Source: Asterionella formosa
Taxonomy: Eukaryota
Assembly (NCBI GenBank): GCA_002256025.1
Contig: NKIB01014709.1
Span: 1 to 41,269 of the forward strand
Reading direction: 5' to 3'
DNA: 41,269 nucleotides
How positions within the stretch are numbered: the first letter of the stretch is position 1; every line of letters starts with the position of its first letter. The translations under genes and the position numbers were made by a program. Of this stretch, positions 4,068-39,544 are shown piece after piece. Below the pieces are notes generated by a model. It searched no databases and was not told the DNA's origin. It saw only the letters and a list, made by a program, of their open reading frames with translations.

Positions 4068-4312
4068 CCGTTCTCCTTGCTACCTATTGTACATAGAGCT
4101 ATTTAATTAATACAAAGGAACTTCTATATGATTGGTCGCTTATGGTTCGCTTCGCAAATAAATGTTTCATACCGTATATAGAGGAATGGTACCATTACCC
4201 TTTACCATGTTGCTGATTGACCCATTCTCCATGCTACATATTATACATAGATCTACTTAATTAATACAAGGGAACTTCTATGTGATTGGTCGCTTATGGT
4301 TCGCTTCGCAAA
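4068..4312 (+). promoter_or_regulatory. Duplicated ~90-bp upstream block (period 154 bp) 5' of the micro-exon gene; putative promoter
   Basis: 4068-4158 and 4222-4312 share TTAATTAATACAA.GGAACTTCTAT.TGATTGGTCGCTTATGGTTCGCTTCGCAAA, including ATTGG (inverted CCAAT). The second copy ends ~120 bp upstream of the ATG at 4434. Promoter function is inferred. Confidence 0.5.
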
Positions 4313-4433
4313 CTACTTAATGTTTAACAGTAGAAAATTTTCTCGCGAAAAACAATAAAAGGAAGAAACAAAAGTTCATAAAACTAAACATATAAACATA
4401 GAAAATCTATATACGCATTTCTCACTCACCAAC

Positions 4434-6790
4434 ATGAAAGCCATTCGTTCCCTTTTCTTGCTTGCTGTGGTCATCCAATCGACTTTGGCATACTCCACCA
4501 TGAACTCAGAGGTACGTTGAAAACATCTGCATTGAATTAACTGTGATAGTGAGTGAGAAGTGCAAGGAGAATCAAACTGGTCCTTTTTGTTTCTGTGAAA
4601 TAAAATTCTTATTTTCTTTTTGATTCTGTCTTGCTTCTCCTTCATCTTAACACTGGCAGGAAACCAGATTCCTGAAAGTCTCAAAGGTAAGTTTTACTTG
4701 CTACAGGTTGTAGAACTCAATCAACTACAACGCCACACAAACAAGAAAAATGGTAACTTACTTATATCATCAACTAATGTTTGCAAATTGATTACTGCAC
4801 TATAGGCTCCCAAGGTATGTGTTTTAGAATAAAAATACCTTGTTTTTGTGATTCGATTCTCGCAAGCTCCTCAAGAAAATGGTAGCTACATGCACTTCTG
4901 TGTTGTAAATTGAGTCTATTGTTGAGACTTATCATGTTGATTCTTTGCCAACAGGATTCAAAGGCAACAAAGGCCCCCAAGGCTACCAAGGTATGTAGCT
5001 ACTTGAAGTGTGGTTAAATCACCTTTCTTGTTGTGTGTGCAGCAATATTAATACAAAAACAATGGAAAATACATTGTGTGCTTCATTTGAAAGCTTGTAA
5101 GCTTGTGAAGTAACAATAAACTGGTAGTGGCATGTGTTTCTGTTATGTCAATTGATTCTGTTCTGACTAACCTTTTTCTGGTTCCAATGTATTTGCTACT
5201 TTCTCTTGACAGAAGCCTAAAGGCACTAGAGAACTCAACAGCAGTGTATGTATTTACTAAACCGTGTTAACATGTTCTGTGGAATAATTCAAACTTTTGA
5301 GTTTGCAAACAGGTACACTGCATGCTATTGTCTTACATCAACTAACATTTGTAATTTGATTCTTTGGCTACAGAGTGGTTCCATGGTATGTATTTGCAGT
5401 AGTAAAGCACCTTGCTTCACATGTTTGAAGCATTTAAGAAAGAACATGGAGTTTGTTGCTTGAAAAAACGGGAACTCGTAACTACATTCACTACAACTGC
5501 AATGTGTTTTGATTTTGTTGTGACTAACATTAATCATGTTGATTCATTCCCATTAGGCTACAAGGACTCTCAAGGCTCCCACGGTATGTACTTGAAGTGT
5601 TGAAGCACTTTCTTATTTGTTGTGTGTTCGCAGCATTATGAAAACAAATCATGGAGTGTGATACTTGCAAGAACATCAAGCAGACTGGTAGCTAGAAGTT
5701 TCTGTAATCAAGTTTATTGATCATGTGGTGACTTACATTAATCATGTTGATTCCTTCCCATCAGGCTACAAAGGCTCCCAAGGCTCCAAAGGTATGTACT
5801 TAAAGTGGTGAAGCACTTCTTACTTGTTGTGTGTTTGCAGCATTATAAAAACAAATCATCGAGTTTGATACTTGCAAGCACATCAAGCAGACTGGTAGCT
5901 AGGTCCTGTAGTAATCACGATGTTTATTGATTATGTGGTGACTAACATTAATCATGTTGATTCATTCACATCAGGTTACAAAGATTCCCAAGGCTCCAAC
6001 GAGGGTATGTACTTGAAGTGGTGAAGCATTTTCTTACTTGTTGTGTGTTTCTGGAATTATAAAAACAAACCAAGGAATGTGATACTTGCAAGCACATCAA
6101 GCAGAGGACTGGTAGCTAGGTCCTGTAATTATGTTTTTTGATTATGTGGTGGCTAACATTAATCACATTCATTCATTTTCATCAGGCTACAAAGGCTCCC
6201 AAGGTTCCAACGAGGGTATGTACTTGAAGTGGTGAAGCACTTTCCTACTTCTTGTTGTGTGTTTCTGGTATTATAAAAACAAACCAAGGAATGTGATACT
6301 TGCAAGCACATCAAGCAGACTGGTAGCTAGGTCCTGTAATTATGTTTTTTGATCATGTGGTGACTAACATTAATCATGTTGATTCATTCCCATCAGGCTA
6401 CAAAGGCTCCCAAGGCTCAACAGGTATGTACTTGAAGTGTTGAAGCACTTTCTTACTTGTTGTGTGTTTGCAGAATTGTAAAAGCAAATCGTGGAGAGTA
6501 TTGTTCTCAGGCTTGCCAAGCAAACTGTTGGCATGTGCTGTACTAGCTAGCTACTATGGTTTTTTATTCTTTTGTGACTAACATTAATCATCTTGATTTT
6601 TTAGCCTACCATGGTAGGTGCTTGTAGCGGCGGAGCACCATGATTGATTTGGTTCAGCATCATGAAAATAAATTATGGCGAACTGTCTTTGGTCCCAAGC
6701 TAATCAAAACTGACTACCGGTATGCAAGACTATGATTCCTACTTTGTGTGACTAACATCTCCTATTTCGCTTCTTCTTCATTAGCTCTAA
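4434..6790 (+). CDS. Micro-exon gene encoding a ~116-aa secreted silaffin-like (RXL/KXXK) Lys-Ala-Pro-Thr-rich protein
   Basis: Exons 4434-4511, 4660-4686, 4806-4814, 4955-4990, 5213-5245, 5374-5385, 5557-5583, 5765-5791, 5975-6004, 6186-6215, 6397-6423, 6605-6613, 6785-6790. All have GTA(T/A/C/G)GT donors and YAG acceptors; most introns have a CTAAC-like branch point. Spliced product: MKAIRSLFLLAVVIQSTLAYSTMNSE|ETRFLKVSK|APK|DSKATKAPKATK|KPKGTRELNSS|SGSM|ATRTLKAPT|ATKAPKAPK|VTKIPKAPTR|ATKAPKVPTR|ATKAPKAQQ|PTM|L*. Confidence 0.85.
5505..6604 (+). repeat. Tandem repeat of a ~210-bp intron+micro-exon unit (about 5 copies)
   Basis: The unit GTGACTAACATTAATCATGTTGATTCATTCCCATCAG-[27/30-nt exon]-GTATGTACTTGAAGTG... 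recurs with exon starts at 5557, 5765, 5975, 6186 and 6397 (spacing 208-211). Confidence 0.9.
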
Positions 6791-7204
6791 AGCATCAGAC
6801 ATTGCAGGAACTTGGGTTATGCAAATTAAAAAATCGCCCTCTTTCAAGTAAGCTCCATCACTTTCCAAAAAGTGCTTTGTAGCAATATCAATCGAACCAA
6901 ATGGTTGATGTTGTTTGGTTCTAAAAGTGGTAGTACTTTAGCCACATAAAGATCTATAGCACTTTCTGCACGCTGCCAAACTGTCGATTATTTAGTTTGT
7001 AAGAAGTAGAATAGCTGACAAGCTTGGGGATAAAAAGGTTGGTTGTCCCATGACAATTCTCGAAACATAATAATAGCAGTGGTCATAATCCATATTGATT
7101 ACAGTTTTCTTGATGGGTAAGAAAGAAAGCATCAAATCCAATTATCATGATACTTTCTTCTCTTCGCCGAGATTCATTGGCCTATATATATATAATGTAG
7201 TGAG

Positions 7205-7449: not shown

Positions 7450-7476
7450 TAATCAGTAAAGAAAAAGGCGAATAAA

Positions 7477-10400
7477 ATGGGAGGCGGCAATACAGCAGCC
7501 AATGATGGTGGCAGCGGTGATGCTACACCAAAAGACAAGAAGGAAAGTGTTGCTGGCAAGAAGCAGCCGATGATGGTGGTGGCAGTGATGCCACACCAAA
7601 AGACAAGAAGGAAAGTGTTGGTGGCAAGAAGCTACCATATTGATACAGAAACCAGAAGACTGCTGTTCCACAGCAGCCCAAGTTTGAAGGGAAATGCGAT
7701 GAGCTGAAAGGTCATGTCTATGATATCTCAGATGCAAGACAGGCAGACTTGTTTGTGATGACAACAAAGGAGGTGGCTGAGTTTGTGGGGCAGACCTACA
7801 AGTATGGCGGCGACATATGATTGGCAATAGAAAACATTCAGGTGCCCAACATTGCTGAGCCATATGACCCACCAGCAGGCGCATCCAGGACTCGAAAGAA
7901 TACATTTTTTGCATTACAGTGTCCAAAAATGCATAAACCGTCAGTCAGGGGAGTTCGTGATAATTTCAACGATTCGAAGTTTTTATTCGCGTAAAGAACA
8001 AGCAGTCTTTTGTTGAATGGCTGAAAGCATTTCTATAGTAAACTGTTAAATGACCTTATCAAGATTCCGTAGAAATATGGACCACGATAATTAGTGCTTA
8101 CATAAAACTCAATACAAAATTGACGTAGAGGTATTTCTTGCATCTTGAAATGTTGTACCCTCTCCGAGAATACTGTCGCTCAAGTTTTCTCCTCTATTTC
8201 TACAAAACATAGAAAACCTTATCTAGTCAAAGTTATCAAGCTAATCACCGCGGACTCAACACTGTCTCGTTTTGCGTCATATCTTCAAAACTGAGCAAAT
8301 GACGACCAGAAACAACTTCCAGCGCCGATTTCAACTTTTTGTTGTCAATACTAGTGCAAAAAAATTTGATTATTGAACGATAATCTCTTCTATGCTAGTC
8401 TATATACACGAGCGAAATAGGAATTGTTCATTGTCAATATTCGTGAAGATATTCAACTCCATAATTTCGTCATGGTCAAGATGGAGTTGCTGTCTCACTC
8501 ATCAACCCCATGATACCACAGGCAGCTTTACAAACACACATGCAAGTACTGGTAGTACATAACCAGTAGTATGTATGCCAAGCATATATAATAGTATATA
8601 ATGCTATATATACGGAATGCACAAAGTATAAACAAGGTCTGTTGCATGTATGATGTGTTCCATGTCGAAAACATAAGTACATCTGATACATTCTGCATCC
8701 GATTTCTTGACAAAATGTACAGTAGTGCAAATTTATTTTTATTTTTCGATTTTCAATATACTTACAAGTAAAAAGAATCATTGAACACTTAGTTAGGAAA
8801 ATTTATTATCATTGATAAAAATTATCATAATCCCGAGTTCCCCCGGCAAACTCATTATGCATTTTCGGACACATTTATGCAAAAAGTGTAATGGACCTCC
8901 AGGACTCAGGAGCGCATTTGGGAAAAGCAGGTAGATGAATATGTTAAGCGAACAACCTACTTAATCGAGAATATTAAGACCCTATATGATTCACTAGTCT
9001 GGGGCCAAGGCCTTGCAAAATTTTGATGAGATGTCGACCAATGGTGATGGTCTTGCATTGCTCAAAGCAATCAAAAACACTGCTTTCAACTTTCATAGTC
9101 AAAAGTACCTTCCGCATTCACTTTATGAATCGACTTGGCATTTCTACATGACAATACAAGGAAAGTATATGACAACCCAGGCTTCTCTTGAACAGTTCCA
9201 AAACATGATAGATGACATTGGGCATACAGGAGGAATGGTGGGTCATCAACCAGGAATCGAAAGAGCCATAATGACAGAGAGGAGCATTGATCCAACAAAC
9301 ACCACAACAGCCGTGTAACAAATGGAAATTGAGAAGGAGGCCCAAAACCGCTATTTGGCTGTTACCTTCATGCTTGGTTCAGATAGGGATAGGTTTGGTT
9401 GCCTGATCGAGAACTTGGAGAATGACTTGTATCTCCAAGGCCAAAATAATTACCCAACATTCATCACTGCAGCCTATAATCTGCTTACTAATTGGAAACA
9501 AGACCCCTGCAACCTCATATGTACAAGTGGACCGGTCAAAGATGGAGCTTCGTTCACCAATGTAGACGGTGAACATGGAGAACAAGATATTCCACTCGAA
9601 AACAGTGGACTCACTAAATCTGGACGAAATAAATTGGCACACATCACATGCCACAAATGTGGCAAACAGGGACATTTTGCTGACAAATGCGAAGAGGAGT
9701 GTCAAACTGGTTCCATGCTTTTGACGGCAGGTATAGAGAATGGAGAGTTCAATCATGAGGAGCACTTCCAATTCCTGCAGCACACCAAAGAAGTATCATT
9801 GAAGCTAGATGAGAGCGGAAAAATCCCAAAGAGCTCGATCTTGTTAGACAATCAGTCTACTGTTGATGTCTTCTATAATGCAAATCTACTCAGGAATATC
9901 AGAAAAGGTGAAAAACACATGGATATTCACTGCAATGCAGGTTTTACAAGCACTAACTTGGTTGGTGACTTGCCAGGATATGGGACAGTGTGGTACCATC
10001 CAAATGGGATTGCCAACATCTTGTTCTTGCTTGGCAAAAATGCAGAAACTTGGGTACCAAATTAAATATGATAGCAAGGATGGAAATGAGTTCATCATTT
10101 ACAGAGCAGAAGGAACCATGAGAGTGTTTAAAAGTGTTTAAAAAATCAGATCGTGGTCTATACTTAATGGACAGCAAGATGGCCAGCACTACTACAGAGG
10201 TCACACTGGTTAATACGGTAGATGATAACCATTCTAACTACACCAACCGTGACTACTCTCATGCAGTATGGGCTCGTCAATTACAAAAGATAATAAGAAG
10301 GCCAAGTACTTGTACATTTACTAAAATTGAGGAAAACAATTTACTACCAAAGTGCCCAGTGATGCAAAGGGACATCCCAATGGCAGAGGATATGGTCCTG

Positions 10401-11036
10401 ATGTGGGATCACTAAAAGGGAAAACCACTCGACGCGGCACTGATCATGTGGCAATCAATTTAATTGAAATCCCAGCCAGCATAATAATCACTATAAAAAC
10501 ATCATCTTGGGAGGTGACATCATGTTTGTGAACAAAATACCTTTCTTTGTGACCTTTTCCTGTCATGTCAAATTTGGGACAGCAGAAATGCTGCAAAATC
10601 AACAAAGCAAGACAATACTAAGGGCAATTAAGCAAGTTAAAAGCGTCTATATGATGAAGAGGGGATTTAAGATCTCAACATTGTTAATGAATGAACAATT
10701 TGAATCAATCAGAGGTGACCTAGCAGAAATGCAAATCAAGCTCAATACTGTTTCCAATGATGAACACGTTCCAGAAGTGGAAAGATACATTCGGACCATC
10801 AAAGAGCGCGCACGTTGTGTATATAACAAATTGCCGTTTCGGCGAATTCCAGCAAGGATGATAATTCAAATGGTCTATTCCAGTCGTGTGTTCTGGCTTA
10901 ACAGTTTCCCAGCAGAAGATGGAATATCTCCCAAACTCCTAAGCCCTCATGCCATTGTGATTGGAACACTCATCGATTACAATAAGCACTGCAAACTTGA
11001 GTTCGGTACATATTTGCAAGTGTATGAAGAGCATGA
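7477..11036 (+). pseudogene. Copia gag-protease-integrase pseudogene (interrupted at 7894-8897)
   Basis: Gag motifs (FEGKCDELKGHVYD, IWEKQVDEYVKR, QGQNNYP), Zn knuckle CHKCGKQGHFADKC, aspartic protease ILLDNQST, integrase DIMFVN...HVPEVERYIRTIKER...HCKLEFG. Multiple stops and frameshifts. Confidence 0.9.
7894..8897. mobile_element. Non-autonomous Mutator/MULE-like element (1004 bp) inserted in gag
   Basis: Exact 10-bp TSD TCCAGGACTC at 7884-7893 and 8898-8907. Imperfect ~43-bp TIRs sharing TACA.TTTTTGCAT.A..GTGTCC.AAAATGCATAA, with G...C termini. The gag sequence resumes after it. Confidence 0.85.
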
Positions 11037-11981
11037 CAACTGCATGCACACAATGTATATCAACTGATCAACAACATTACTCATCAACATCATAAACCTT
11101 CTCATATTATTTTCAATTCTCGTGATTGCTCGATGTAAATTATTACTACAACACATCCTAAAATCAGCTCAACTCTAGGCTATCATTTAAATTGTTTCAT
11201 CGTAAATCTATTGTAAACATCATCATAATTTTAATCACAATCATTGTTCAAAATAGATTGAAATAGATCATAATTTAACTATCAATTTTAGCAATGCTAT
11301 CTCTTATTCTTCATGCCAGCGACCCAACGTTTCTCTCTCTACTTGGCTCAATGTATATTGTTCCTGTCTCACCCTTTTCTTCCTTTTTTCTGAATCTTGT
11401 GCCAAGCAATGCCTTACTAATGTTGCGTCTCTCTCCCTGTTGTTAGTGTCATTCTAGACTCGCCGACTATTCTGTTGTTTGATCGGTTTTATTGTCCTAC
11501 GCAGTTACAGTAACAATGAGAAGGAACGACTTGTTAGCTAGACATGTTACACTGACACAACATCACGCCATTCCATCATACCACAGCCAAATCAAAGCAA
11601 GTGATGCATAAGTCTGTAATAGTAAATTGTCAGTAAATTCTTGAATAAGTAAGTTTCAGGTTTCCAATGTTGTCGAATAAAACTTACCGATTCATTTTCG
11701 TTAGCTTAACTTTGAAAGAAGGTAAAGTGGCGTGTCCGCCAGTTATGTTCCATCAGAAGTGAATAATTCCAATAACAAGAGCACTTACCAATTTTGTTTT
11801 GTTTTACATTGGTGCTCCAGAACAAGCAAAACGAGCTGTTGAATCAACTTAAAAAAAAGGAAATGTGCATTTATTTTTAAATTTGTTGTTGTCCTGCCTC
11901 CCAACGATTTTCATCCAAGTACCACATTGATGGCTTCATTACCTTAAACATACTCCATCCTTCGAAGGCGCAATGTATCGA

Positions 11982-13198: not shown

Positions 13199-14622
13199 AT
13201 GTCTTCAAAAAACCATAAAGAGGTTCATGGAAACAAGCGACATGTGGCAAATACTGCCGGTATGGAACAAAGAAGCAAGTACCAAAATGAGTTAACAAAG
13301 AAAAAGCGAATAGGTGTTTACCCAAAGGAACCCAATCGGCGACCGACGGAGAGTTAGTGGGGGTACTACCCCTTTGTCGATGGGGACACCATCAGCTACT
13401 AGTACAATGGCTCCCGTAATTGATACTGACAGCGATAATGACGTTTCTTTTTCAGTTGTTGATACAAGAAAAATGGCTCCTGTCGATGATACCATTAATA
13501 ACTCCCGGATGCAGATGGATGACATGGAACCATATCATAAATTTTCTAATCGCACGGACCAAACTGAGGGAGAAACATTTTGCACATGCCAAAGGATTTT
13601 ATCAATTGATCAATGAACTCAATCACTAAAAAGGTCGTAATTCGGTTCAAAACTCGTCCATATGAGGTTATCAAGACTCTATTATTTCAGCAGCCTTATC
13701 AGAACGTCGTTCCCACTTAGCTAAAATTGAACCATCAATTTTCACAAAGGTTGTGAATTTTAGTTGCTTTCAAAACCAAGAAGTTTTGCTGTGAAGCAAC
13801 ATGTTAGTTTGATGTTATAGTTCGTGAATTTCAGGTACTATAAAACAGAATATCAATCAAATGTTCTTTTTTCTGGTCCCAAAAGAGAATCAAACATCCC
13901 GCCCTATCTGGTCCAAGTAGTATGAAAGGCATTTCCAATCACAAACAGGATTGGTTTGCCCAATGTTTACCTGCCTAACTCGGCTATACACAGTGAAACC
14001 GGAGTTAGGCAAAGAAGTGGAAAGTGACCCAGAGCTTGCCGATTTCATATGGAATGGTTCTGATGCGCTACTTCCAATGAATCAGACCATTGAACGTACC
14101 AACAAGGCATGTTTAGATTACATCAAATCAACATTTGGTGGCATGTGCATTAAAAAGTTGAGAAAATGTCAGAATGTATTGAATAATCAATTTAAAGGAA
14201 TCTTTGAATGGTTTGACTGGGTCAAAGTGAACTGGGAGAAGGGAGATGGATCAAGTTCCTACACAGTTCCTGCAAAACTACTTATTTGGGGAAATCTTAT
14301 TTTCTCCAACTCAATAACCATTCTCTTAGCGTGTATTCGTTCCTTGAAAAGTTCAACTGAAATGAAAATTCATAAACGTATGTTTTTTGCAAGAGGAGAC
14401 ACCTTATGCAATGATACAACTGAATTGAGCGTTGTTGAATTTCATAACATACTTTCGGCAGCATTTGTTGTTCCCGCTTTGAAACCACAGGAATCAAGGA
14501 AATCTCTGAAACCGCAAGACGTTTTCGAACAGATACGGAAAGATAATTTTTATGTTGCCATGCCTCCACGTAATTTATGAAAATCAATTGGGTGGGACCA
14601 AAAACTAACAAGCGAACGTTGA
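13199..14622 (+). pseudogene. Element A gene with a Plavaka-transposase-like C-terminal domain (disrupted)
   Basis: WFDWVKVNWE...VPAKLLIWG...HKRMFFA...LSVVEFHNILSAAFVVPAL...PPRNL*KSIGW is collinear with 21463-22389; the TGA at 14578 replaces the paralog's Trp. The 5' part is fragmented and its start is approximate. Confidence 0.65.
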
Positions 14623-14740
14623 TAAATATATAAAAATAATATAAATGATAATGGTAACAATTTAGTTTCGCACACTAAATTGGTTATCATGAGGTTTTCA
14701 CAAACTACAATTTCCTAAGAAATGATTATCCAATGGTCCA

Positions 14741-16908
14741 TTATTTGTTCTTTTTCACTCCCAAAGAACCTAAGATGGTCCTCCTTCTAGTTTCGTCCGA
14801 AATTTTGCTTCTCCACTTTTCAACTGCAGTTCGATATGAGTCTGCAAACTTCTTCAAGTTGATTCCAGAAGGTCTATCATCAGATACAAAATTTTCTTTC
14901 ATTTTTTTGTCAATTTTGATGCATCCAGAAATTTGGCCAAGAGGTGCATGATTATACCATTTGAAGGGAGCAAGTTTGTCATTACTTTGTTGTATCATGG
15001 ATTTTACGTAGACAACTTCATCCTTCTTGAAAGAAGAGTTGCAAGAAACTCGTCCAAATATTTCGTTCAACATTTTTAAATCTAAATAGTAGCTCAAAAA
15101 TTTGTCGATACAAAATTGAAGAACAGTTATTTCCAACTGAAACATATCCTCACAAGAATTTGTTGTTGTCACTTGAGGCCAAACTGTTCCAAGATGAAAG
15201 TATGTTGACTTGGTTGGTGGGTCAGATGTAATGGATAAGAAATCGTCTGTTCGATCTGTTGCTGCCACCTGACGTTTAAAAGCTTTCCAGGACTCAGTCT
15301 CCAAACGAAAATGCGCCCGTTTGCCAAGAAATTTGGTTTTACCATTCCTTTCTAATTGCAATAGAGTTTCCAACACTTTCACAATTGTAAAAGGTCCACA
15401 TGACCATCCACTGTCATCTTATGGTTGAAATAACATGGAATCATGGTGTTCAGTGGCCATACTGATCTGCAATGGTGCTTTGGTGCCAGCATAGAAAGAT
15501 TCCGAGAACCCAATTTCTTCAGGTATATGGAATTCTTGTGGAAGATATCCTGTATTGGTGCATAACAATTCCAATTCTTTTCTGCATCCGGGGATGATGC
15601 AGTACTTACGGGCAAGGTGAAATACTTGATCATAATGTTCATCCAAACTTGCATCTTTTCCTGGATCACGGACTTGACATAATCCATCATTTAAAGAAAA
15701 AGATAATTTTCCTCCTCATCTGATCTTTTGAATTACACAATTAGCACATAGTTACTTTCGCCATGAAGTGGATGACAATCACCTTGGTATATATATGGAT
15801 TGTTATTACCCTTTTCTGGGTTCTCATCCAGATCAAAAATAACCTTTACATCACTTGGATGAAGTTCATGAATTATATAATGTATCATAGAGGTAATTGT
15901 TTCAAGGTCCCAATATGCAAGATCTTTAAAATCTGAAAATGATTTTTTGATACCTTTCACTCCATAAAATACAGAGGCGTAATTGCATATATCTTGCGGG
16001 GTATGAGTGTACAAATCTTTCCACAATTTTAGTTGTCCATGCGATTTCGGCAAACTCAAGGAAAATGCCGTTTGCTTTGGCATAATAACTCTACACATTT
16101 CACATGCCCAGCGACTCTTCACAAAAGTAGCTGCCTCCGGGATTGTTTTCAATGATTTTAGAAAGAAATTCTTTTTCTTCCATGTATGATTTGGAAAAAG
16201 ATTCAATTTTGTGTTTCTGACTTCGTTCCTGACTCAGTATATCAACTGCCTTAGCCAGTATGGTCATCACATGCAACTCTGTCTGCATTGATCTTCTTGA
16301 ATTCGAGGTCTTGATCTAGCTCAGACTTTTTCTTGAATATCTGTTCTTTTAGAAATTTAATAGTTTCTCTGCTTTTATGATGTTCATCTTGATGTTCTGG
16401 ACGGATAGTGAGATATGTTTCTTGGTTTTGCAACTTTTCAACCATTTCTACTTCTGAAGTGTTGTCTGCCACATTTCCGCCGATACTTTCATTCATCGCA
16501 TGAATTTGTTCATCAAATGAATGAGAATCACTGAGTTCTTCTTCATTATCAGCGATTTCAGGAGAATGGGGAACAAATACGACACTGGATGGAACTGTGA
16601 CTCTGTAGGAATAGGGTCTTCATCCGCGAAGAACAACTGTTTGGGTTTCCTTGGCTCTTCGAAAGCAAACTTTCCTTCTTTTCAATCTCTGCCACTATTG
16701 TATCGGCATACTTCATTATTTTTTCTGGATTATTATGAATCTGTTCAAATTCATCTAATCTTTGAGTGTATTCAAAGGAATCTTCGATTGATTTCATAAG
16801 TTTCTTCATCTTCTTTTCCGAAAACTTAAAGTTGTGTAGTGTAAACAATGGAAGTAAGTCACGTTTCTTGTTTGACTGATTCTTTGCATGAAATCCATGA
16901 AATGCCAT
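14741..16908 (-). pseudogene. Element A Ulp1/SENP-like (C48) cysteine protease pseudogene
   Basis: Fragments LAYWDLETITSMIHYIIHELHPS and LFQP*DDSGWSCGPFTIVKVLETLLQL...FLGKR align with 22616-24199. Several stops and frameshifts. Confidence 0.75.
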
Positions 16909-17532
16909 TTCGAAAGCAAGTTAAAACAGTGGAAGGGAAACGCGGAGCTTTTCGCGAAGCTTTTTGCGGCGCTTGTGCAGGTGGAACTGGTGTGATGGTA
17001 ACGGAGTGTAGCAATTGTTGAACAGAGCAGAGTGTAATATGCATGTTCCGCCAGCATAGTGTTTACACAATACACATGCCGGATCCTATCCACTGTATAA
17101 TACTATCATATTAACTATTGGCTTTCACTGTATACATTATAAGTCTAATTTATATATTAAGTAATCTACTTTATGATTTATTTATTTATTTATTTTCTGT
17201 GATGTATCGATAACACTTGCATACATATTTTATCGTATTTTATTGTTATTGTATTATTTTAACATGATCATATTTAGATCAAAATTATATCATAAACATT
17301 TTAAGAAATCATCATAGTTCTATGATCAATGCATCATAGCTATGTGATATACTTTATTCAATATTACATATCATACTTTGGTGATGTATGCATCGATGTA
17401 ACCCTATCGTGATATCACATTATCATCTTATCAATCATGATGAGATGATTGGGAACTGTAGTATTCTGCATCATACTACGGAGTATGATATTATAACACG
17501 CACTTTAGTAGCTAAGTCACTCCTGTAATGTA

Positions 17533-18689: not shown

Positions 18690-20224
18690 ATGGGGATGTG
18701 CCAACGGCCGAAAGCAGAGAGCATATACAAACAAGGAAGAGGCAAGTTCACCAACTGTGGCTATCGAATCAGTACTGTTATCTTGTGTAATCGATGCAAT
18801 GGAAGGTCGTGATGTTGCCACAATTGACATACCCGGGGCATTCATGCAGGAGGATATGGAGGATGTTGTTAACATGAAGTTGGAAAGGAAAATGGCCAAA
18901 CTTCTTGTGTGAATAGATCCCAGATTATACCGCAAACATGTGCAGATGCAAGGGGGTGAGCAGGTCTTATATGTGGAAATAAAGAAATCATTGTACGGAA
19001 CTCTCAAGGCAGCGCTGTTATTTTGGAAGAAACATACAACAAAATTGAAACAATGGGGATTTGAGGTGAATCCATACGATTGGTGTGTAATGAACAAAAA
19101 AACTATTGATCGGGCCCAATGCACAATATTATGGCATGTGGATGATCTAAAGATATCTCATGTCAAGCCAAATGTAGTTACCAAGGTAATCAAACAGTTG
19201 GAGGCAGAATTTGGCATTGAGGCACCCCTTACAAAGACACGTGGAAAAGTTCATGAATACCTAGGCATGATTCTTGATTTTACTACAATAGGAAAAGTCA
19301 TGGTGTCAATAAAGGATTTTATTGAACGGATGTTAAACGAGCTGCCAACAGACATGGATGGGGAAGCTGTGACTGCAGCAGCAAATCATCTCTTCAAAGT
19401 GAACGAAACAGACCCAATCAAGTTGAAAGAAGAAAAATCCGCAATGTTTCATCATAACATGGCCAAACTGTTGTTTTTATGTAAGCGTGCCCGTCCGGAT
19501 ATTCAGACCGCGGTGGTTTTTCTATGTACACGTGTTAAGGCTCCCGACACAGATGATTACAAAAAATTGACTCGGGTAATGAGGTATTTACGAGGAACTG
19601 TGAATATGCCACTGACACTGTAGGCAGAGAGTATGTAAATAGTCAAGTGGTGGGTCGACGCTTCATTTGCTGTTCCGGAGCTGTGATGACCCTAGAAAAA
19701 GGAGGAATATATGGCACATCAACCAGGCAAAGAGTTAACACAAGAAGTTCCACAGAAGATGAGCTTGTAGGAGTCAACGATGCAATGCCACAGATATTGT
19801 GGACACGATATTTTTTCGAGGCTCAAGGATACGATGTTAAAGATTCAATTTTCTTTCAGGATAATCAGAGTGCAATATTGTTGGAAAAGAATCGCAAGGC
19901 ATCGAGCAGCAAAAGAACTCGCCACATTAACATCAGATATTTCTTTGTTACTGATCATATTGAGGCAAAGAGGTGCCAGTTCAATACTGCCCTACACAAG
20001 AGATGGTTGCAGATTTGTTTACAAAGCCACTACAGGGTGTCCTTTTCCAGAAATTTAGAAATGAGATTATGAATATTGATCCAGCAACTGTTAGCTTCCA
20101 GGATCACAGGAGTGTGTTAGGAAATATGGATGTACAAGATACAGACGGTGAGTGGGTCAAAATACAAGGAAAGAAAAAGAAAGAAGCCACGTCAACAGTG
20201 AAGGGTACGTGGACGGATAAGTAG
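18690..20224 (+). pseudogene. Copia reverse transcriptase-RNase H pseudogene
   Basis: GCANGRKQR, DIPGAFMQ, KSLYGTLKAALLFW, LWHVDDLKISH, RARPDIQTAV, SSTEDELV, QDNQSAI, KRTRHINIRYFF, ADLFTKPLQG, and DHRSVL running into the 3' LTR. Contains stops and frameshifts. Confidence 0.95.
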
Positions 20225-20237: not shown

Positions 20238-21462
20238 CGACTGTAAATAAAAAACCGTTAGGCCTAACAGTTTCGCTGTAAGACCCACTGCCCCAAAAAT
20301 TCTCAGTATGATGTACCATTTTTTGATTGATCATACAAAAAAACTGATTGATCATACAGAAATACTGATTGATTAATATTGGTGCATTGATCCTACGTAT
20401 GCTTAGCATAGATCACATGCATATTATGTGATATCTAATAGATTGCATTTGTAACATTATTATCGAAGCACATTCAGTATACACTCATCATGCATATATA
20501 TATATCAATGAGTTTCAAATCAATAGATCATACAATATGCTTATGATCAATTCAGCACTCTCACTCTTATTATCAATGAACGTTTTGGTGTTAGATCTAA
20601 AGATAGTGATCGTGAGATCAAATCAGTGATTCATTTGATCTAACCTTTGGAATGCTAATATCAAATAGAATTTTTAGCTTTCGATCTAACGTTCATGACT
20701 ACTGATCTAACTAATTTCTCTCATTAATCAAACCTATTATCATGTTCGATCAATGATGAACACAAATCGAATTAAAAGGATTGTTATTTAATACTCAAAT
20801 ATTCTACTTCTGGTCACCCATACTTTCCACTGTACATCCTCTATCAGAACGAGCACACAGTAGTCTTCAACACCTTAATTTTCACTTCCGGTAGCTATGT
20901 TTAGATCATTGCCTCTTTAAAATGAAATGAGAGAGTAAACGAAATTGATGATGCTTTATTCGAACCTCTACCATTGCGAATGGCAGCAAGTCACATTCTC
21001 CAATGTTCTTGTACAACTTTCCTGTAAGAGATAATAACAACAAAGTTAGCAAAACTGTTGCATCAAGTAAGCAAGGCAGCCATCTAAATGAAGATATGTG
21101 CAACGAAACGATCACATGAACAATCCATCACTCCAATTTCCGTATGAGCAGGCAATGTGTATATTACTTACCTGTGCTCTCATGGTTGATTGTTGCTTCC
21201 ATTAAGAATGGTAGCAAGCCACATTCTCCAAGGTTCCTGTATGATTTTGAGGAGATAATATCAATGTTAGCAAAAGTGTTGCAACGATTAAAGCATCTCC
21301 AGCCACACATGTGCCACGAACTGATGACATAAACAATCTATATAACTTCACGTTCCAATCGACATAACGAGCATCAAATGAGAGTATAGTAACTTACCTA
21401 TGCTCTCAATGTTGATTGATGGGTGACAGAGTAGCACGTTGTTAACCCTCACATCTGCATAT

Positions 21463-22389
21463 ATGGAAGGGAAAGATGATATTAATGTCGAAATCCTAAT
21501 TAATGGACACAGACACTACAAAGCCTCTGCAGCATTGTGCACAAACATTTTAAGTGCGGTTTCTTACCTCGTAATTAGGTTGATTTCTATCGTTCGTCCT
21601 GAGGAAGATAATATCCAGCCACCATCATACTTTGATCATGTAATGAATTGGGCTTTCAAGGCTCATGATGATGGCTATTTCCAGAAAAAGCAATGTGCAC
21701 CATCCCATCAGAAATTAAAAAACTCAGATGGGACAGTATACAACCGCTTGTTTCACCCAGACAACGAACATGGTAAACCTGCCATTCAGAACCTTGTAAA
21801 TTATGCCGTACAGCGGTGCAAGGACAAAAATTCTACTGGAACTACGTCTGTAGAGATAGATCGGATCAATTTCTATTATCATGTTACTATAATCTCCAAA
21901 GATGACGGTACGAAAACAATTTTAAGATGTAATCCAAAATGGAACAAACAGGACAAGAGTCTTCATCAATCAAATTATTGGTTTGATTGGGTTGAAGTAA
22001 ATTGGGAAAGTCGAAATGGGAAAAATTACGGTGTACCAGCAAAATTACTTTTATGGGGTTACGTCGTTTATTCAGATGGAACTGAAACACTCCTTGCATC
22101 TATACGTTCTTTGAGGAGTACCACTGTCATGCCAGCCCATCATCGCATGTTTTTTGCTACAGGTGATTACATTTGTGATGAGAAGACTGGATTAAGCGTT
22201 GTTGAGCATAACAACATTCTTTCCACAGCATTTGTAGTCCCAGCTTTAGCACCAGCTACAATCAGTAAATGTAAGAGTACACGAGAAACCGTTGAAGCCA
22301 TGGAAAAGACTGATTATTATATTTCATTACCACCACGAAATCAGTGGAAATTGATTGGTTGGGATATTCCTTTAAGTACAGAGAAGTAG
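21463..22389 (+). CDS. Element B protein with a Plavaka-transposase-like C-terminal domain (no catalytic core seen)
   Basis: Intact ~308-aa ORF from the first ATG. ILRCNPKW...YWFDWVEVNW...PAKLLLWG...AFVVPAL...PPRNQW resembles the C-terminal region of Plavaka-type transposases as I recall it; not database-checked. Confidence 0.6.
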   Translation: MEGKDDINVEILINGHRHYKASAALCTNILSAVSYLVIRLISIVRPEEDNIQPPSYFDHVMNWAFKAHDDGYFQKKQCAPSHQKLKNSDGTVYNRLFHPDNEHGKPAIQNLVNYAVQRCKDKNSTGTTSVEIDRINFYYHVTIISKDDGTKTILRCNPKWNKQDKSLHQSNYWFDWVEVNWESRNGKNYGVPAKLLLWGYVVYSDGTETLLASIRSLRSTTVMPAHHRMFFATGDYICDEKTGLSVVEHNNILSTAFVVPALAPATISKCKSTRETVEAMEKTDYYISLPPRNQWKLIGWDIPLSTEK

Positions 22390-22615
22390 CACTAGCTAAT
22401 CGTCACAATACAAATTATTACGAATATACTTCAACATTTAAAAACTGCCTCCGAATTCATAGTTTACTTATCTTTATGATTTTCTTTTCTTGAGAACCTG
22501 ACGATGAAAATGAACTGTCATCATCCACTGATTCTTCCGAAGATTTTCAAGAAACTCTTGAAATCTTTGTATAGTATATCATGCTGGCTGTCATTCAGGA
22601 GAACAGTATACCTGC

Positions 22616-24836
22616 TCACTTTCTGCATGCCCTCAGCAACAACGAAAAAGCACGTTCGTATTCGTTTTCAAATTTCAAGGTTTCTTTACTATTACCATGC
22701 CAATGGTAAGATTCTACGGGATGATGAACCATTTTACTAAGATACATCAGTTCAGTTGTAGTTAACATCGGAGATAAATCGAATTCAGGATTGAACTCCA
22801 TTGCTGCAACTTTGTCACAACATGAACCCACAATGGTGTTGAGAACATATACAATAACTGCATCTTCAACGTCATTTTCTGGATTACCAGGATATGACCA
22901 TCCATTTTGATTTTCACCCTTAAATTTCATTTTCATAAATGTATCGCAACTATCCTTTGTTAAACGTGACTCACTTCGTTTCCCCATAAAATTAGTTTCT
23001 CCATTGTATCGTAGTTGTAGTAGTAATTCCATCAACTTCACAGTTGTAAAGGGACCACATGACCATCCACCATCCTTGGTTAGTTGGAAAATCTTTGAAT
23101 CTGAATGTTTTGCTATAAAACATTTCAGAGGGCCTTTCCCACGGAAACCACCGCCCACCTTAAATTGAGGTTCCACGTTGGTGTAACCTCCGATTTTTGG
23201 TATCTCACTGAATGTTTTCAGAAAACTCTCTCGACATTCTGATCGAGCCTTCTTCATGCCAGATTTCCATTTTTCGAACTCGGTTTTGAATTTGACAATA
23301 GCTTTAGAGGGAATAATTTCTTTGTTAATATCTACACCAGGGCAAATACGATATTTGCGTGCAATCTCGTGAATGCATTTCAAATGACTTTTCAAACTAG
23401 CTCCATGTTCAGGATCACGTACTTCAACGTTGCCTTCGTTTAGATAAAAACAATATAGAACATAATGTTGATGATGTCGTGTTTGTAAATAAATCAAAAT
23501 AGGGAATTCAGGTTGGAGATAAAAACTGTTAGATGGATGAGGACGTTCAGTATTCCAGTCATTTCTGTCATGAGATTCAACAATTACATGAATGTTTGAG
23601 GGATGCAGTTCATGAACAATGACCTTCACAATGGCGGTCACAATTTCAATATCCCAATATGCACAATTGGACAGTTCAATACGATTGTCCCTGTACTGCT
23701 TCTCTGACAATTTAAGGGAATACTCATTCCTGCAATATTGACTTACTTCTGAGGGGTAGCAAGAGTATGTATTGTAGTAAAGCTTATGTGACTCCGGACC
23801 CAACATAAGTGGGAACCGGAAAGGTGTATCAAATACTTGGCAATTCACGCAGAATGGGCAGGACATGCTTTCCACAAAAAAAGAGGGTGAAACACTATAT
23901 AGGTGATCATTGAAACATTCCAATTCGTTGCCATATCCCGAAACAGCAGCTGCAACCTTTCCCTTTATCGATTTTATCGATACAAGTAATTGATATGTTT
24001 CTTCACTTCTCCTTGCTCTTTTGCATAAATATTTATGAATTCCTTCATCAAATAATTTCAATAATGATTTATCATTACAGGATAAATCACTTATCTCCTT
24101 GACCTGCTCAATTACTGTCCCAGTGACTGCAACAGTTTCGGAAATCTTTGGTAAGTAGTCATGAATTACATACAGACTGGCGACCATGTCCTGTTTCAAA
24201 ATTTACAACTCTTTACTAGATAAATGGGACAAATCACTTTCCTCCTCGACCTTTTTTTTTAACTTTCCAAATCACTCCTACAATTTCGGAACTCTTTGGT
24301 GACAAGTCATGGACTGCTTCTTCCAGATTGGCAACCATGTCTGGAGTTGCCTTTAATTTACATTTTGCTTTTGCTTTGGAAGGGGGAGATTTCATATCAA
24401 GTCTATCAGATTCGATAGACTCAATTAGACGCTCTAAGGAAGTAGAAACAAGATCTATCACGGGCATATAAGCAACACAATCTTTACTTCTTGGAATGGT
24501 ACTATTTGGAGAAGATGAACTGGCATCAACTATTTCGTTTTCACTCGCCTGTGTCAATGCATAAACAGAGAAGAAACGACGTTGGTGATCTTTATTTGGA
24601 ATGACAGGTATTACTAATTCCATCAGCTCGTCAGGAAAAAAAGTTTCCCAATTTTGTCGATGCTTCTCAAATGTGGCCGTAATGGTGCACAGAAGCTTGT
24701 TGCTCTTTTCTTCTGTATTAATACCAGCACCAAAAATATTAGTAAAGATACAGGGATCATTTGAAACGCCCCAATAGCGGAGAAGTTTATCAACATCATT
24801 GGACTCATTTCGACAACCATTGTTGCTGTACAACAT
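22616..24836 (-). CDS. Element B Ulp1/SENP-like (C48) cysteine protease; 527-codon intact 3' part, disrupted 5' junction
   Basis: YWDIEIVTAIV, QHYVLYCFYLNEGNVEVRDP (His, Asp) and IFQLTKDGGWSCGPF (Gln, Cys) are in Ulp1 order. The upstream ORF 24234-24836 joins only via a frameshift near the A9 run (~24252-24260) plus a TAA at ~24203. Confidence 0.72.
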
Positions 24837-26279
24837 TGGAATCAGCTATTGATTGAATAATGGTTCTGGTACCCTCATAAATATTTTACACTTCTTCGGA
24901 GTGGCAAGAACATATGTGTGGGACAAGCTACACTACGTAGATATAAGCTATATAAATATAGCGGTCACTTTGTGGAAAGTAGTATATGTGTGGCAATGGG
25001 GTTAGGCTGTCTTATATATTGCCTCTGATGTCGCCGATAAAGATAGTAAAATGTTATTAAGCAAAGTTACGATTGTTATTTCGAACCCCCTGCTATTCAA
25101 GGTTCATGTGATGCTACTATTTCCTGAATGAAATGAAGCTACTTCCTGATCAGTGATGTTGCGGCTCTAATTCTGCAGCATACAAACATGCTTGCCAATA
25201 GCTAGTCAATGAGAATGGAAGACCCATGGCTAATTAAGGCCATGAGCAACAAACTGCACCGCCATCTGGTCCATCTTCTCTTTGATCCACATCTCATCTT
25301 GAAGAACAGATTCGAAATACGGATCGATGTTCGCAATGGGCGAAATATGATCAAAAGGTACTATCTTCTTGATTTCGGTTGGAATTGGAATCGGGTATGG
25401 CCTTGCTTCAATGCATTGTTCTCCAATTCTGTCGTATAAATTGACCAAAGCTTTTGATTTCGAGTAACAAACAAACAATCAAACTTCGCCAGCATAATTC
25501 CCCATCAATATCGAGACCATATCATTTGTTATAAGACTGAGATCATCGCCGTCCCCGCAAGAAGGTAGCTCGTAAGGGATTCAACGAACGCACATGGCTT
25601 GTAAGAATTTCGATTACTGATATGCGAATGGAGAGATAATGACGAATACTACCGATACAAGAATTGGATCAAAGCATGTACCAGTAGAGCATTCAAATCG
25701 GAACGGCAACAAGGAAAGCACCGTTGTTGCACAGAATTCATTCTAATAGCATCATCGGGTAAAAGGTTTACATACACGTAAGGTGATCTGTGTCAAGTCA
25801 TAAGCTTTGCTAAAACAATAATTAATCAAAGAGCAACATCTATTGATCAATCAAACAACGTATCAATATATCAAAGCATTTGGTTAGCAGATTAAATTTG
25901 ATAACTAATATATATGCCTTCTATCTATGCGTAACTTGACGTGTGTAAAAAAGTAATCTGACAAACAAATTTGATTGACCACACCAACAGGATCATTGAT
26001 ACATCAAAATTATCATCTACATAACACAACATTTGATCAATATATCAAGAATTTGGATTAACCGATCAGATTTGGTAACTAATATATACAATTCTTTTAT
26101 ACGCATAACCTAACATGTGTATGCTGGTAACCTAACGTACAAATTTGATTGATCATACAGATACAGCCGTTGATATATCAAAATTATCATCAACATATCA
26201 AAATATTTGAATAATCAATCAATTTTTTAACGTATGCTGAGTAAAACGTTAGATCTAATGGAAAATCTATTCAAAGACG

Positions 26280-28936: not shown

Positions 28937-30715
28937 GATTTTTTTGTATGAGAATCTCTTCTCACACGCACCACTCGTTCTTCGAACGCCGAGCAACATA
29001 CCGGTAATTGCTTAAGATATATAATACAGTAGTTTCATACAGCATGCATACGCACCGGTACTAGGATACGGGTATGTCAAAATACAAATGCTAGTGTACT
29101 ACGACGGTACGTAGTTCCTAGGTTTTGAGAGGGTGAGACTGAGAACAGGCAGGTCTAAGGCCTTCTGGGCCACAGTGGCTGTGACTTCACAATCCTCCAC
29201 AATTGTTGCTTTCATTATTAGCATATTATAAAGTTTAACTTATGTTTGTGTATTTATACATTCAAATAAGAAATATTGTTTGATTCATGCAAACACTGAT
29301 GCCTTTGTATTGATATTCTTATGCACAGTGTAAAATCATAATATATCATGTTGGTACCATCATTTCCCTCATTTAGAAAGACAGGTGCCAATATGGCAAT
29401 CTCAATGCCTCCTCCATCACTGTTATGTGAATCCTATTCTTCCCATTCTTGGAGAGTCCCAAACAATCCAATATTATACTTTGCCAAGAACACATTTGAA
29501 GCAGGGATTACCACCATCTGTTGATCCTGGAGGGAAGTAACTGGCTTCATCTTCCAAACTCATGAATAATTTGTCTAATGGTCGATTTATAAAATTCCAA
29601 ACACCAGGGCTGGCAACCATGCCAGGAGGTGCTTTATGGACTGACCTCCTGTTAGGACCAACTGAGTACTAGACTTCTCATGCTTTGTTTGATAAGAAGT
29701 GAAGTTAAATTTTATATTTTGACAAACAAGCAACAAAACTACAATTAGTCAGAAGGGTACCTCGCTTGATTCAAAATGGTAAACTGACAATCTAAACACT
29801 CCTGCCACTTCTATTCTTTGCAATCATTATGAAATGGTTTGTAGAGCAAGCAATAGTAGATCACACCAGCAGTAGAATAGATTTATGCCAACAACAACAA
29901 GGGTTCACTGTTGGAGAATTAACATGCTCTTATAGCATTGACAGTTTGATTTTCTATTGAATTATTTCCTTTCTTTCTTGACAGAGATGATATTGGCAAT
30001 GTGATGGAGATTTTCCTCCAAAAATTGCATTCAGCTCATCCTATGCAACAATTGTAGTTTTTACCAATGCATATTCAGGTTCTTGGGAAGGGCATGTATG
30101 ATGTCAGGAGGAAAAGCACGGCCTTGACAGCTCATGTTCCTCCAGTTTGTGTCAATTGATGATGATAAATCACCATGCTGATTGGAAGGGCATAAAATAG
30201 AAGAATAATTATTTGTATATATCAAATTTTTATATCCACTGTCACACTGTTAGTTACCATGTTAAAATATTTTTTAATCCAGAAGAATTCTGCAGATTCT
30301 AGCAATAATATATAGAATCTACGTAATTTCATTCTCAGAATACGGTAAACCGTTGGGACTATGTAGTACTAAACTACTATTGTATTAATTTATATCTGAT
30401 GCCAGTATTAAGTATGATGCTTAATTATAAACCTGTATATATATATATAATTATGCATGAAATTATTCTAGATATATTCTGACATCTCGTCCGTCTGCTG
30501 CATTGATCATTTGTCAAAAAGGCAACAAATGATGCTAGTGTTGTCGTTCATCTAGACCAACTCTTGCCTGCATGTATATAAGTAATCAAAAGTGCAGCAT
30601 CGTACCACATTTCCCATCAAGAAGGCAGCCATCATCAAGCAATAACGAGATAAAATCAATCGCTTGGAAACACTTCTAAAGTTCTGGTTCCCCCAACAAA
30701 CACAATCACATTCCA

Positions 30716-32293
30716 ATGTTTCCTCCTTGCCTCCTTCGTCCTCGACTACTTCCTCGTCACGTTGCTTTCTTTTCAACAATAGGAGGAGAAAGGATGAGAA
30801 TCGCCATTTGTGGAGGTGGTGCTGCTGGATTAAGTACGGCATTGCACCTGGCAGAATTGGTCGACCGAGGGCTTGTGGCTGGACCCATTGATGTGTTCGA
30901 TGCGAATCTATCCTCCACTCCCCGGGCCGTTGGGGTGGGCCTTTGGAGTACTGCCATTCTTCCCTTTCAGAATTCATGGAGAGCTTCGCACCAATTGGTG
31001 TGGGAAGATCTCATGCACCATGGCAAGTGGGTCAAGGACGTTGGATATCGGACACCATATGGGACGTGGTTGGCAGTATCGCAATTGCCTACAGAAGTAT
31101 CTGCTATGAAGGACAGTATGCCAGCTTTGTTGTTTTTAAGAGAGCAAGATATGCTCCATTCGCTTCGCAAGGCAGTTCACTTAGAAGAAATGAAAGGGAC
31201 CATACAAATCCATCAAGGGAAGCAGTCGACCGTGACTGGGATTGATGAATACTTTGTGCCACCCTTTTCAGCAAAGTTGAAATTAAGGAATGGCACTTGC
31301 ACTGAACGAGATTATCATTTAATTGTTGCCGCAGACGGGATGAATTCAGTGTTACGACAACGCTATGGAGGACATCGGATATTGAGACGATTGATTGGAA
31401 CGACTGCGTTGGGAAGTCCCTTCGATGCGAAACAAGAACGATACGAAGGACCTGCCAATGAAGCTTCTTGGGAGGAACAAGAACAAACTGAAGCCAATGC
31501 CATTGAAGATCGAGGATATACCGTATTTAGAGGAAATGCCGACATTTCCAGTCAAGATGCTGGGATGGACGGTATCAGTTTCCAAACCTGGGGCGAAGGA
31601 AACTCCATGCGATTTGCGACAGTCCCACTCTCTTATCCTGGTGGACCCTCAGGACGTGGGGAACAACAAGTTTGGTTCATAACAACCTCTGATAAAAATG
31701 TTACCAATGAGACTGATCCAATGGTCCGAAAAGAAAAACTTTTAAAAGCATTTGACAAATGGCATGATCCCATTCAAACACTGATCGAGGCCACGCCTGC
31801 GACGGAAATTCTCGTAGAACGCGCCATGGCCCATCGACATTCGGTAGGGCCCGTGTTGAATCTGAATCGGGTACTCCGACAAGTTTACAAAACATCTCCT
31901 CCGTCGTCGGGGCCAGGCCCTGCGGTGGTATTCATTGGAGACTCCTTCATGACAGTAGACCCAATTTTGGCACAGGGATTTACTATGGCTATGGAAGGCA
32001 GTGCAGCACTAGCTCCATCTGTCGAAGCCAGTATTTTGCAATTTCAAGATACTGGACTTGCCTTTGATCCGTACGAACTCAGAAACCAATTACAACAACG
32101 ACACGACGAGCGAAATGGACGATTATTACATCTATTGCAGGCCACAGAAATTGTGCAAGCCTTGGGACAGCCTCAAGGTGGATTGGTAGGAAGTCTATCT
32201 CGATATGTGGTTCGACCGCTAATGCAGCTTGCACCTGATTTTATCAAGCGTCCTATATTCAATGCTATGCTTACGTATTCACTGAAAAAGTGA
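30716..32293 (+). CDS. FAD-dependent monooxygenase (FAD_binding_3 / aromatic hydroxylase-like family)
   Basis: Intact 525-aa ORF with RIAICGGGAAGL (Rossmann fold), LIVAADGMNS (DG motif) and FIGDSFMTVDPILAQG (GD motif). The Arg-rich N-terminus resembles a mitochondrial presequence. Confidence 0.92.
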   Translation: MFPPCLLRPRLLPRHVAFFSTIGGERMRIAICGGGAAGLSTALHLAELVDRGLVAGPIDVFDANLSSTPRAVGVGLWSTAILPFQNSWRASHQLVWEDLMHHGKWVKDVGYRTPYGTWLAVSQLPTEVSAMKDSMPALLFLREQDMLHSLRKAVHLEEMKGTIQIHQGKQSTVTGIDEYFVPPFSAKLKLRNGTCTERDYHLIVAADGMNSVLRQRYGGHRILRRLIGTTALGSPFDAKQERYEGPANEASWEEQEQTEANAIEDRGYTVFRGNADISSQDAGMDGISFQTWGEGNSMRFATVPLSYPGGPSGRGEQQVWFITTSDKNVTNETDPMVRKEKLLKAFDKWHDPIQTLIEATPATEILVERAMAHRHSVGPVLNLNRVLRQVYKTSPPSSGPGPAVVFIGDSFMTVDPILAQGFTMAMEGSAALAPSVEASILQFQDTGLAFDPYELRNQLQQRHDERNGRLLHLLQATEIVQALGQPQGGLVGSLSRYVVRPLMQLAPDFIKRPIFNAMLTYSLKK

Positions 32294-35005: not shown

Positions 35006-35571
35006 GGTCCGATGGCTTAGGTTTGGATTCCGGAATCGTGCCGTTGACGATGTTTTTCCTCCGACGCTTCTCCTAATATGCTTTGATCGTTTTTCTTCTT
35101 GTCGAACAAATTATATAGGCCATAATGCTGAATTTAATTTTTTATCTTTTGATGTGCTTAATATGTATTTATCTATCAGCACTGATAAAGTAAAAATACC
35201 GGTAATGCGTAATATAGTACGGGTATATAGGCAGATCATAAAAATACTATCCAAACTAATAGTATCATCATGGAATATACCATAATATTACTTGTTGAAT
35301 ATATGCATTGATCCTAGACCGTTACCACACACGAGGACAGAATTGTGGTCAATAAAATGTCATTGTAATATATACGTGGTGGAATATCAATCATTGCATG
35401 GATTGCATGTGATGGGCATCCTCACAATTTGGCGATTTTGTGGCGAGATGTCACGTGTTGGTAGCAAAACCAAGCTGATGTTGGTATATTCTGTACCCTC
35501 TGCTATTATACAACATCACCTACATTTGATATGATAGATATGATAAACACAGAAGGAAAACAAAAACCACA

Positions 35572-39330: not shown

Positions 39331-39544
39331 CCACGATGGTTTGTTCATACTCCATATCAGGTACCCATACCATGCCAGTTATTTATATATATACCACTCA
39401 AAATTGCTTAGTTAGTTCCTGTTAAATTGTCTAGTTGAAATATCACAGATCTTACTTTTAAGATCTCTAAAGCTGAAAACGTATTTTCACTTTACACTTT
39501 GTAATATTGTGAGCTTTCTGTTAATAGTCTATCTAGTCTTTTTC

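Follow-up and report, generated by a model that had tools for sequence, protein, structure and literature searches.

Thirteen symmetric exons at positions 4434–6790 on the forward strand of the 41,269-nt stretch of DNA analysed here (the window) are spliced into an mRNA for a basic, low-complexity protein with a predicted length of 116 residues. We think it probable, though well short of assured, that this product is secreted as a small precursor serving the siliceous cell wall or the organic matrix of that wall, and that it works like a silaffin-type precursor. The preliminary description had made such a reading depend on a diatom host, and the host is indeed a diatom: its genome gives seven matches to silicon transporters over the Pfam cut-off, and a neighbouring gene for a FAD-dependent oxidoreductase (a flavoprotein; 30680–32293) is conserved across diatoms, with Fragilaria crotonensis as the nearest named relative listed (58%). 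The host is probably an araphid, freshwater pennate diatom.

Gene structure and spliced transcripts

All twelve introns are bounded by GT and AG and measure 119–222 nt, and all eleven internal exons are in phase 0 and comprise whole multiples of three nucleotides (9–36 nt). When both strands of the whole window were searched for short exons that are in phase 0 and have strict splice signals, six of the seven matches were exons of this gene. The preliminary description had placed the gene at 4660–6613, a span that holds the internal exons but leaves out the signal-peptide exon and the stop exon. Exon 1 (4434–4511) encodes a signal-peptide-like start of about 19 residues, with a hydropathy peak of 2.2–2.8, and a short pro-segment. 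In an alignment of this exon across five paralogs, 14 of the 26 columns are invariant and both the hydrophobic core and the small residues before residue 20 are kept. A Tyr at residue 20 is a ground for considering plastid targeting, which we regard as unlikely here: in the paralogs the corresponding residue is Asp and the pro-segment is acidic. Upstream of the start codon (4377–4426, forward strand), CATAAA(A/C), 50–63 nt before the ATG, and TTCTCA(C/T)T, 15–29 nt before it, are candidate promoter-proximal motifs, both being found 5′ of the ATG in all five gene models of the family. Farther 5′ of the gene lies an imperfect direct repeat of about 55 nt (4085–4170 and 4255–4312) with ATTGG in each copy, possibly a duplicated promoter element; ATTGG also occurs 89–149 nt before the ATG in four of five paralogs.

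The internal exons, all on the forward strand, begin with exon 2 (4660–4686, 27 nt), which carries the first RXL (RFL) and the first KXXK, and exon 3 (4806–4814, 9 nt), which adds three codons. Exon 4 (4955–4990, 36 nt) has three KXXK and forms the core of the first pentalysine cluster. The second RXL (REL) is in exon 5 (5213–5245, 33 nt), the counterpart of an RDL or RIL exon in the paralogs; it is followed by a Ser/Gly/Met spacer in exon 6 (5374–5385, 12 nt) and by the third RXL (RTL) in exon 7 (5557–5583, 27 nt). The second pentalysine cluster spans the junction between exon 8 (5765–5791) and exon 9 (5975–6004), and exons 10 (6186–6215) and 11 (6397–6423) contribute more KAPK repeats. After the 9-nt exon 12 (6605–6613), exon 13 (6785–6980) supplies one codon, the stop codon (6788–6790) and the 3′ UTR, RNA contigs extending to about position 6980.

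Part of the stretch is present in five of the six RNA runs listed, and four runs, all but X4 and X6, three from one study and one from another, were analysed as assembled contigs, not reads; the runs are lake or freshwater metatranscriptomes. Contig joints from the four runs and two studies back 11 of the 12 introns (1–9, 11 and 12), and the joint of exons 1 and 2 is present in all four runs. At the joints, the exons of 9 and 12 nt are visible as inserted letters, namely exon 3 at 4687–4953 (runs X1, X2 and X3), exon 6 at 5245–5556 (X1 and X2) and exon 12 at 6423–6787 (X1). No joint of exons 10 and 11 across intron 10 is among those listed for the four runs, and similar repeat ends may hide it. 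Contigs reading through introns 7, 9, 10, 11 and 12 are also present and are frequent in the 3′ repeats. Since contig depth is zero at 4100–4323 and 7012–7123, these introns are more probably retained or unspliced RNA than DNA. Retention of any of introns 7–11 would bring a stop three codons in. Intron retention is described as common in Phaeodactylum, where genes have on average 0.7 introns (PMC5859163). Amino-acid-changing variants in the RNA fall at the start of exon 9, whose first codon has two forms, at the end of exon 11, in exon 12 and in the last codon.

One contig of run X3 joins exon 3 to a repeat exon placed at exon 10, with a depth of 12.2 compared with 11.7 for the normal joint. 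Because exons 8, 10 and 11 are identical over their first 19–22 nt and the joint of exons 8 and 9 has a depth of 23.1 in the same run, skipping of exons 4–7 fits this contig best, contig depths being a poor measure. The form without these exons would lose both internal RXL and keep a pentalysine cluster. The preliminary description had proposed that skipping the RXL exons would change the peptide boundaries; the contig agrees with this in one of four runs, but a deletion allele would look alike and may fit the near 1:1 ratio as well as splicing does. No joint of exon 3 to a repeat exon was seen in the other three runs, and a pattern search of the genome revealed no second haplotype of the array in the assembly. 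A further joint, 5582–6396, was rejected as a skip of exons 8–10, as the X2 contig ends within the 22 nt common to exons 8 and 11.

The mature part of the product (97 residues after residue 19) contains 19 Lys, 15 Thr, 15 Ala, 12 Pro, 8 Ser and 4 acidic residues, with a single Tyr as its one Tyr/Trp aromatic and no Cys; Pro, Thr and Ser together make up 36%, and the net charge of the product is +20. It has 13 overlapping KXXK and two pentalysine clusters of the form K..K..K.{1,2}K..K, with five overlapping matches. The counts in the preliminary description (RFL, REL and RTL, 19 Lys, few acidic residues, many Thr and Ser, many KXXK) were all right. Its picture of one module per exon held for the RXL, each of which lies inside one exon, but not for 4 of the 13 KXXK or any of the five pentalysine matches, which cross exon junctions. 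Only 4 of the 19 Lys are exon-terminal, and the lysine periodicity was accordingly rejected as a splice-site artefact. In composition-preserving shuffles of the mature part, at least three RXL occurred with P=0.00025. At least 13 KXXK occurred in 0 of 20000 shuffles and any pentalysine cluster with P=0.027, and both of these figures overstate significance because the repeats are duplicates of each other.

The exon array and the paralogous genes

Exons 7–11 lie in a forward-strand tandem array (5502–6488) of intron-plus-exon cassettes of about 211 nt, present in 4.7 copies with 86% matches by Tandem Repeats Finder. Introns 7–11 are 72–92% alike, against a shuffled background with a mean of 50% and a maximum of 59%; intron 6 is 67–71% and intron 12 about 61% like them. 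Judged from these alignments, exons 7–11 are shown to have arisen by tandem duplication of an intron with its exon. Only phase-0, whole-codon cassettes could be copied in this way, so the symmetry of the exons is explained without alternative splicing. The RTL of exon 7 is in register with the KAP of the four other repeat exons, and three point changes separate the two; with KAP in four of the five copies, a gain of RXL from KAP in exon 7 would be a simpler reading than a loss elsewhere. The five repeat exons differ by nine distinct non-synonymous changes and one synonymous change, an excess that is not significant (P=0.18), and positive selection was rejected on this ground; the same counts give no sign of purifying selection on residue identity in the repeat exons.

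Pattern searches of the genome yielded complete models of four further genes, which lie on contigs C2129, C678, C12909 and C12336 and were all modelled from splice signals. Eight short contigs match C12909 or C2129 at 93–100% identity and have the look of alleles or of array pieces left unresolved, and two one-mismatch pattern matches (C6322 and C12837) were rejected as family members. First-exon protein identity within the family is 54–76%. All five models follow a common plan of a signal exon, an R-V/F-L exon, Lys/Pro/Thr exons, an internal-RXL exon, more Lys/Pro/Thr exons and a stop exon. The second exon carries an RXL in all five models, being RVL in the four paralogs, whose last exon is in each case predicted to be one codon plus stop, and whose internal exons are all in phase 0 (29 of 29). 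Each model has two or three RXL, and the pentalysine pattern is present in four of the five. Of the 15 Arg in the five mature regions, 12 belong to an RXL, and in 11 of these 12 cases the next residue is Lys, the paralogs being non-independent observations. A block of three to five exons recurs in C2129, C12909 and C678, and an RDL exon separates or follows its copies; the C12336 gene has only six, longer exons.

The flanks of the three closer paralogs, C678, C2129 and C12909 (loci L005, L014 and L016), are 70–82% identical for 0.7–1.4 kb or more past the gene, so that these three arose by segmental duplication. At C12336 (L020), a spliced gene for a secreted trypsin-like protease, recognized by eye and preceded by a PP2C-like phosphatase fragment, lies on the same strand about 3.5 kb past the paralog ATG; its position beside an RXL precursor may be due to chance.

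Relatives outside the genome were sought with a first-exon profile, a single paralog exon, patterns and DNA, as opposed to the spliced protein. The profile, built from five exons, gave no match among 4319 candidates, the longest paralog exon had none of seven matches confirmed and no usable Atlas match, and in metagenomes none of 97 pattern matches was confirmed and no DNA match was obtained, all of these being searches of weak power. With similarly weak queries, no look-alikes were found in the index of scanned genomes.

Proposed role and alternatives

If the product does act as a silica-associated precursor, the predicted N-terminus would route it to the ER, and a diatom RXL protease would remove the pro-segment and then cut twice more. 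Cutting after each RXL is predicted to give the pro-segment, a piece of 27 residues with the first cluster, one of 12 residues without Lys and one of 46 residues with the second cluster. The lysines may be methylated or polyaminated and Thr and Pro phosphorylated, glycosylated or hydroxylated, and the released peptides would bind silica or influence its deposition by polyamines. With all internal exons in phase 0, the gain, loss or skipping of a cassette leaves the frame intact, and the number and length of the peptides would thus vary between paralogs, possibly also between alleles or isoforms.

The motifs are evidence for this role. Silica-associated precursors are described as being generally processed at RXL, and modified lysines as standing in KXXK (PMC4557024); another source gives RXL as reported so far only from biosilica-associated proteins, with its role still to be proven (PMC5647440). 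The product has RXL after the signal-peptide-like start and between the repeats, as in silaffins, and its KXXK are clustered, with pentalysine patterns in both clusters. Among 92 proteins extracted from the silica of three centric diatoms, the pentalysine pattern is reported in 29%, compared with 1.5% of the background, and PKA.K, which occurs twice in the product, is enriched more than 20-fold, compared with only three-fold for plain K..K (10.1101/2021.09.18.460806); these motif statistics all derive from centric diatoms, and the present host is pennate. The silaffin-like character put forward in the preliminary description finds partial support in the signal-peptide-like start and in RXL, KXXK, pentalysine and PKA.K, but the product is rich in Thr, Pro and Ala, poor in Ser and falls outside two published screens. 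The Scheffel screen takes at least 18% Ser and at least 10% Lys per 100 residues together with a signal peptide (as quoted in PMC3478156), and the mature part has 8.2% Ser and 19.6% Lys; the Brembu screen takes repeated KXXK in which X is S or G (PMC5501833), and none of the 13 KXXK is of the form K[SG][SG]K. Such sequence screens predict function weakly, as only 11 of the 89 Scheffel genes are in the Tpsil3-like expression set (PMC3478156). The product is also not cingulin-like: in cingulins KXXK blocks are described as alternating with Trp- or Tyr-rich blocks (PMC4557024), and the mature part has one such residue.

Several known proteins resemble the product in part. Sil1p, the silaffin-1 precursor of Cylindrotheca fusiformis, has a signal peptide where the product has a signal-peptide-like start, and shares with it an RXL following this start, KXXK lysines and basic repeats separated by RXL, as well as the expected release of short cationic peptides, and the RDL between multi-exon units in three paralogs recalls the R1–R7 units of Sil1p (PMC4557024). 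Sil1p is described as having 265 residues, an N-terminal domain that is acidic and repeats that are rich in Ser and end in RRIL or RRNL (PMC4557024), whereas the product has 116 residues, no acidic domain, Thr, Pro and Ala between the lysines and mostly T-R-X-L-K sites; the likeness is one of motifs and layout, not of sequence homology. The product is more like the silaffin-like and soluble silicome proteins of Thalassiosira and Cyclotella that have PKA.K, pentalysine clusters and PT repeats; besides pentalysine and PKA.K, the likeness covers RXL, XPT/SX tetrapeptides (four here), low complexity and lineage-restricted sequence (10.1101/2021.09.18.460806; PMC5501833). The present gene differs from these in its pennate, probably araphid host and its symmetric micro-exons, as well as in the two screens mentioned above. 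AC3362 of the pennate diatom Amphora coffeaeformis is secreted, as the product is predicted to be, and likewise Lys-rich with a repetitive Pro/Lys/Thr-rich region, and is found in the silica-associated insoluble matrix; it is described as much longer, Tyr-rich (8%) and with KG repeats (PMC4220933), and the product, compared with it by description, has one Tyr and no KG repeats. We do not count the family among the silaffins sensu stricto.

In exon architecture the gene is closest to the micro-exon genes (MEGs) of Schistosoma mansoni, a multigene family described as having 10–20 very short exons, mostly multiples of three, a signal peptide, small secreted disordered products and transposons nearby (10.1101/2023.06.21.545858). 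The run of short symmetric internal exons encoding a small, putatively secreted protein corresponds to such genes in architecture only, and the likeness is one of analogy, not homology. MEGs are described as schistosome-specific, with introns reaching 5 kb and numerous isoforms verified as splice products (10.1101/2023.06.21.545858), whereas the present gene has introns of 119–222 nt, visible tandem exon copies, RXL and KXXK signals and a possible isoform seen in one contig. Diatoms are expected to have silaffin-like precursors, and schistosomes are known to have micro-exon families; the two combined were not found in the searches run. In the literature searched, which lay outside subscription journals, no description of micro-exon silaffin-like precursors was found, and no paper on spliced silaffin modules was among the matches listed.

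The likeliest alternative, although we consider it unlikely, is a secreted adhesive or mucilage glycoprotein of colony pads or extracellular matrix, in which the Pro/Thr repeats would be hydroxylated and O-glycosylated and Lys would bind acidic polysaccharide or the outer silica surface. The preliminary description had already allowed for an adhesive, PTS-rich regions mark diatom adhesive proteins, as would suit the Pro, Thr and Ser content of the mature chain, and a discussion of non-motile species takes in pads and the formation of chains (10.1101/2023.03.06.531300). The adhesives of that report, however, are modular and partly very large, with CAA, GDPH or Cys-rich domains; Lys is not among the main amino acids listed there for adhesive material, and neither RXL nor lysine is mentioned in the text (10.1101/2023.03.06.531300). 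Our product, like none of the adhesive trail proteins so described, is short and free of Cys, and its predicted pieces are under 50 residues; adhesive proteins with RXL were not found in the literature search. AC3362 itself, being Pro/Lys-rich, was chosen as an adhesion candidate and turned out to be a silica-associated matrix protein (PMC4220933).

We regard as improbable a precursor of variable cationic defence or interaction peptides of the MEG kind; RXL would then be no more than a signal for the maturation of secreted diatom proteins in general. The high net charge, the symmetric micro-exons, the predominance of amino-acid-changing differences among the repeat exons and the exonic RNA variants, and the lack of relatives found outside the genome with weak queries are all in keeping with it; the non-synonymous excess is not significant, however, and the pentalysine and PKA.K patterns match silica proteomes. 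Antimicrobial peptides of the amphipathic type carry hydrophobic residues, and the predicted pieces, unlike these, are almost devoid of them. It is highly improbable that the Lys triplets are a by-product of duplicated AAG|GT splice contexts in a gene that expanded recently, is under weak constraint and has no specific function: the gene does sit among retrotransposon remnants, non-synonymous divergence of the repeat exons (0.47 per site) is not below intron divergence (0.35 per site) and intron-retaining contigs are common in the 3′ repeats, but the internal exons of the five models are in frame and stop-free in 40 of 40 cases, and even the paralog with a first exon of only 54% identity has preserved the signal exon, the RXL positions and the promoter motifs.

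Returning to the silica-associated precursor, one extension of it is speculative and, in our estimate, unlikely to hold: that the family is a kit of exon cassettes, with cleavage sites and lysine repeats on separate micro-exons, in which the number and length of silica-directing peptides would be set by regulated skipping of exons 4–7, which carry both internal RXL, together with cassette gain and loss and the origin of new RXL from KAP by point changes. Were this so, a MEG-like system of micro-exon diversification would have been applied to biomineral patterning. Diatom silica-associated proteins have motifs in common and little sequence, and the family may display one route of origin in progress, through cassette duplication, a cleavage site in register with a lysine repeat and paralogs differing in the number of RXL-bounded units. 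Exons of 9–36 nt leave a gene with no long open frame, and annotation is likely to miss such genes; araphid pennates may therefore harbour a hidden class of candidate frustule proteins. The predicted peptides, of the Thr/Pro type, are short and lend themselves to direct tests of silica targeting and precipitation.

Other features of the window

Broken remnants resembling LTR retrotransposons lie at 7453–7950, 9319–11067 and 18913–20072; the first includes a 68-nt tandem repeat (7486–7632), and part of the last (18913–19623) gives a match to Pfam RVT_2 just below the cut-off. Two clusters of open reading frame fragments, at 13921–16920 and 21427–24845, are related, with 13921–14580 resembling 21427–22389 and both 14741–15418 and 15733–16233 resembling parts of 22616–24202. 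The three fragments scanned gave no Pfam match, and the clusters are probably copies of an uncharacterised mobile element.

Two long divergent open reading frames, at 32834–35110 on the reverse strand and 35530–38589 on the forward strand, have a similar C-terminal region, and the latter contains a PLAC8 domain (E=3e-13). The stretch 32551–33102 on the reverse strand resembles the end of the forward-strand frame, which suggests an inverted paralog pair. Near the start of the contig, a short telomere-like GGTTAGGGTTCT repeat is present in 2.7 copies at 310–353, and a repeat at 39419–39548 is found also near two of the paralogs (L016 and L005).
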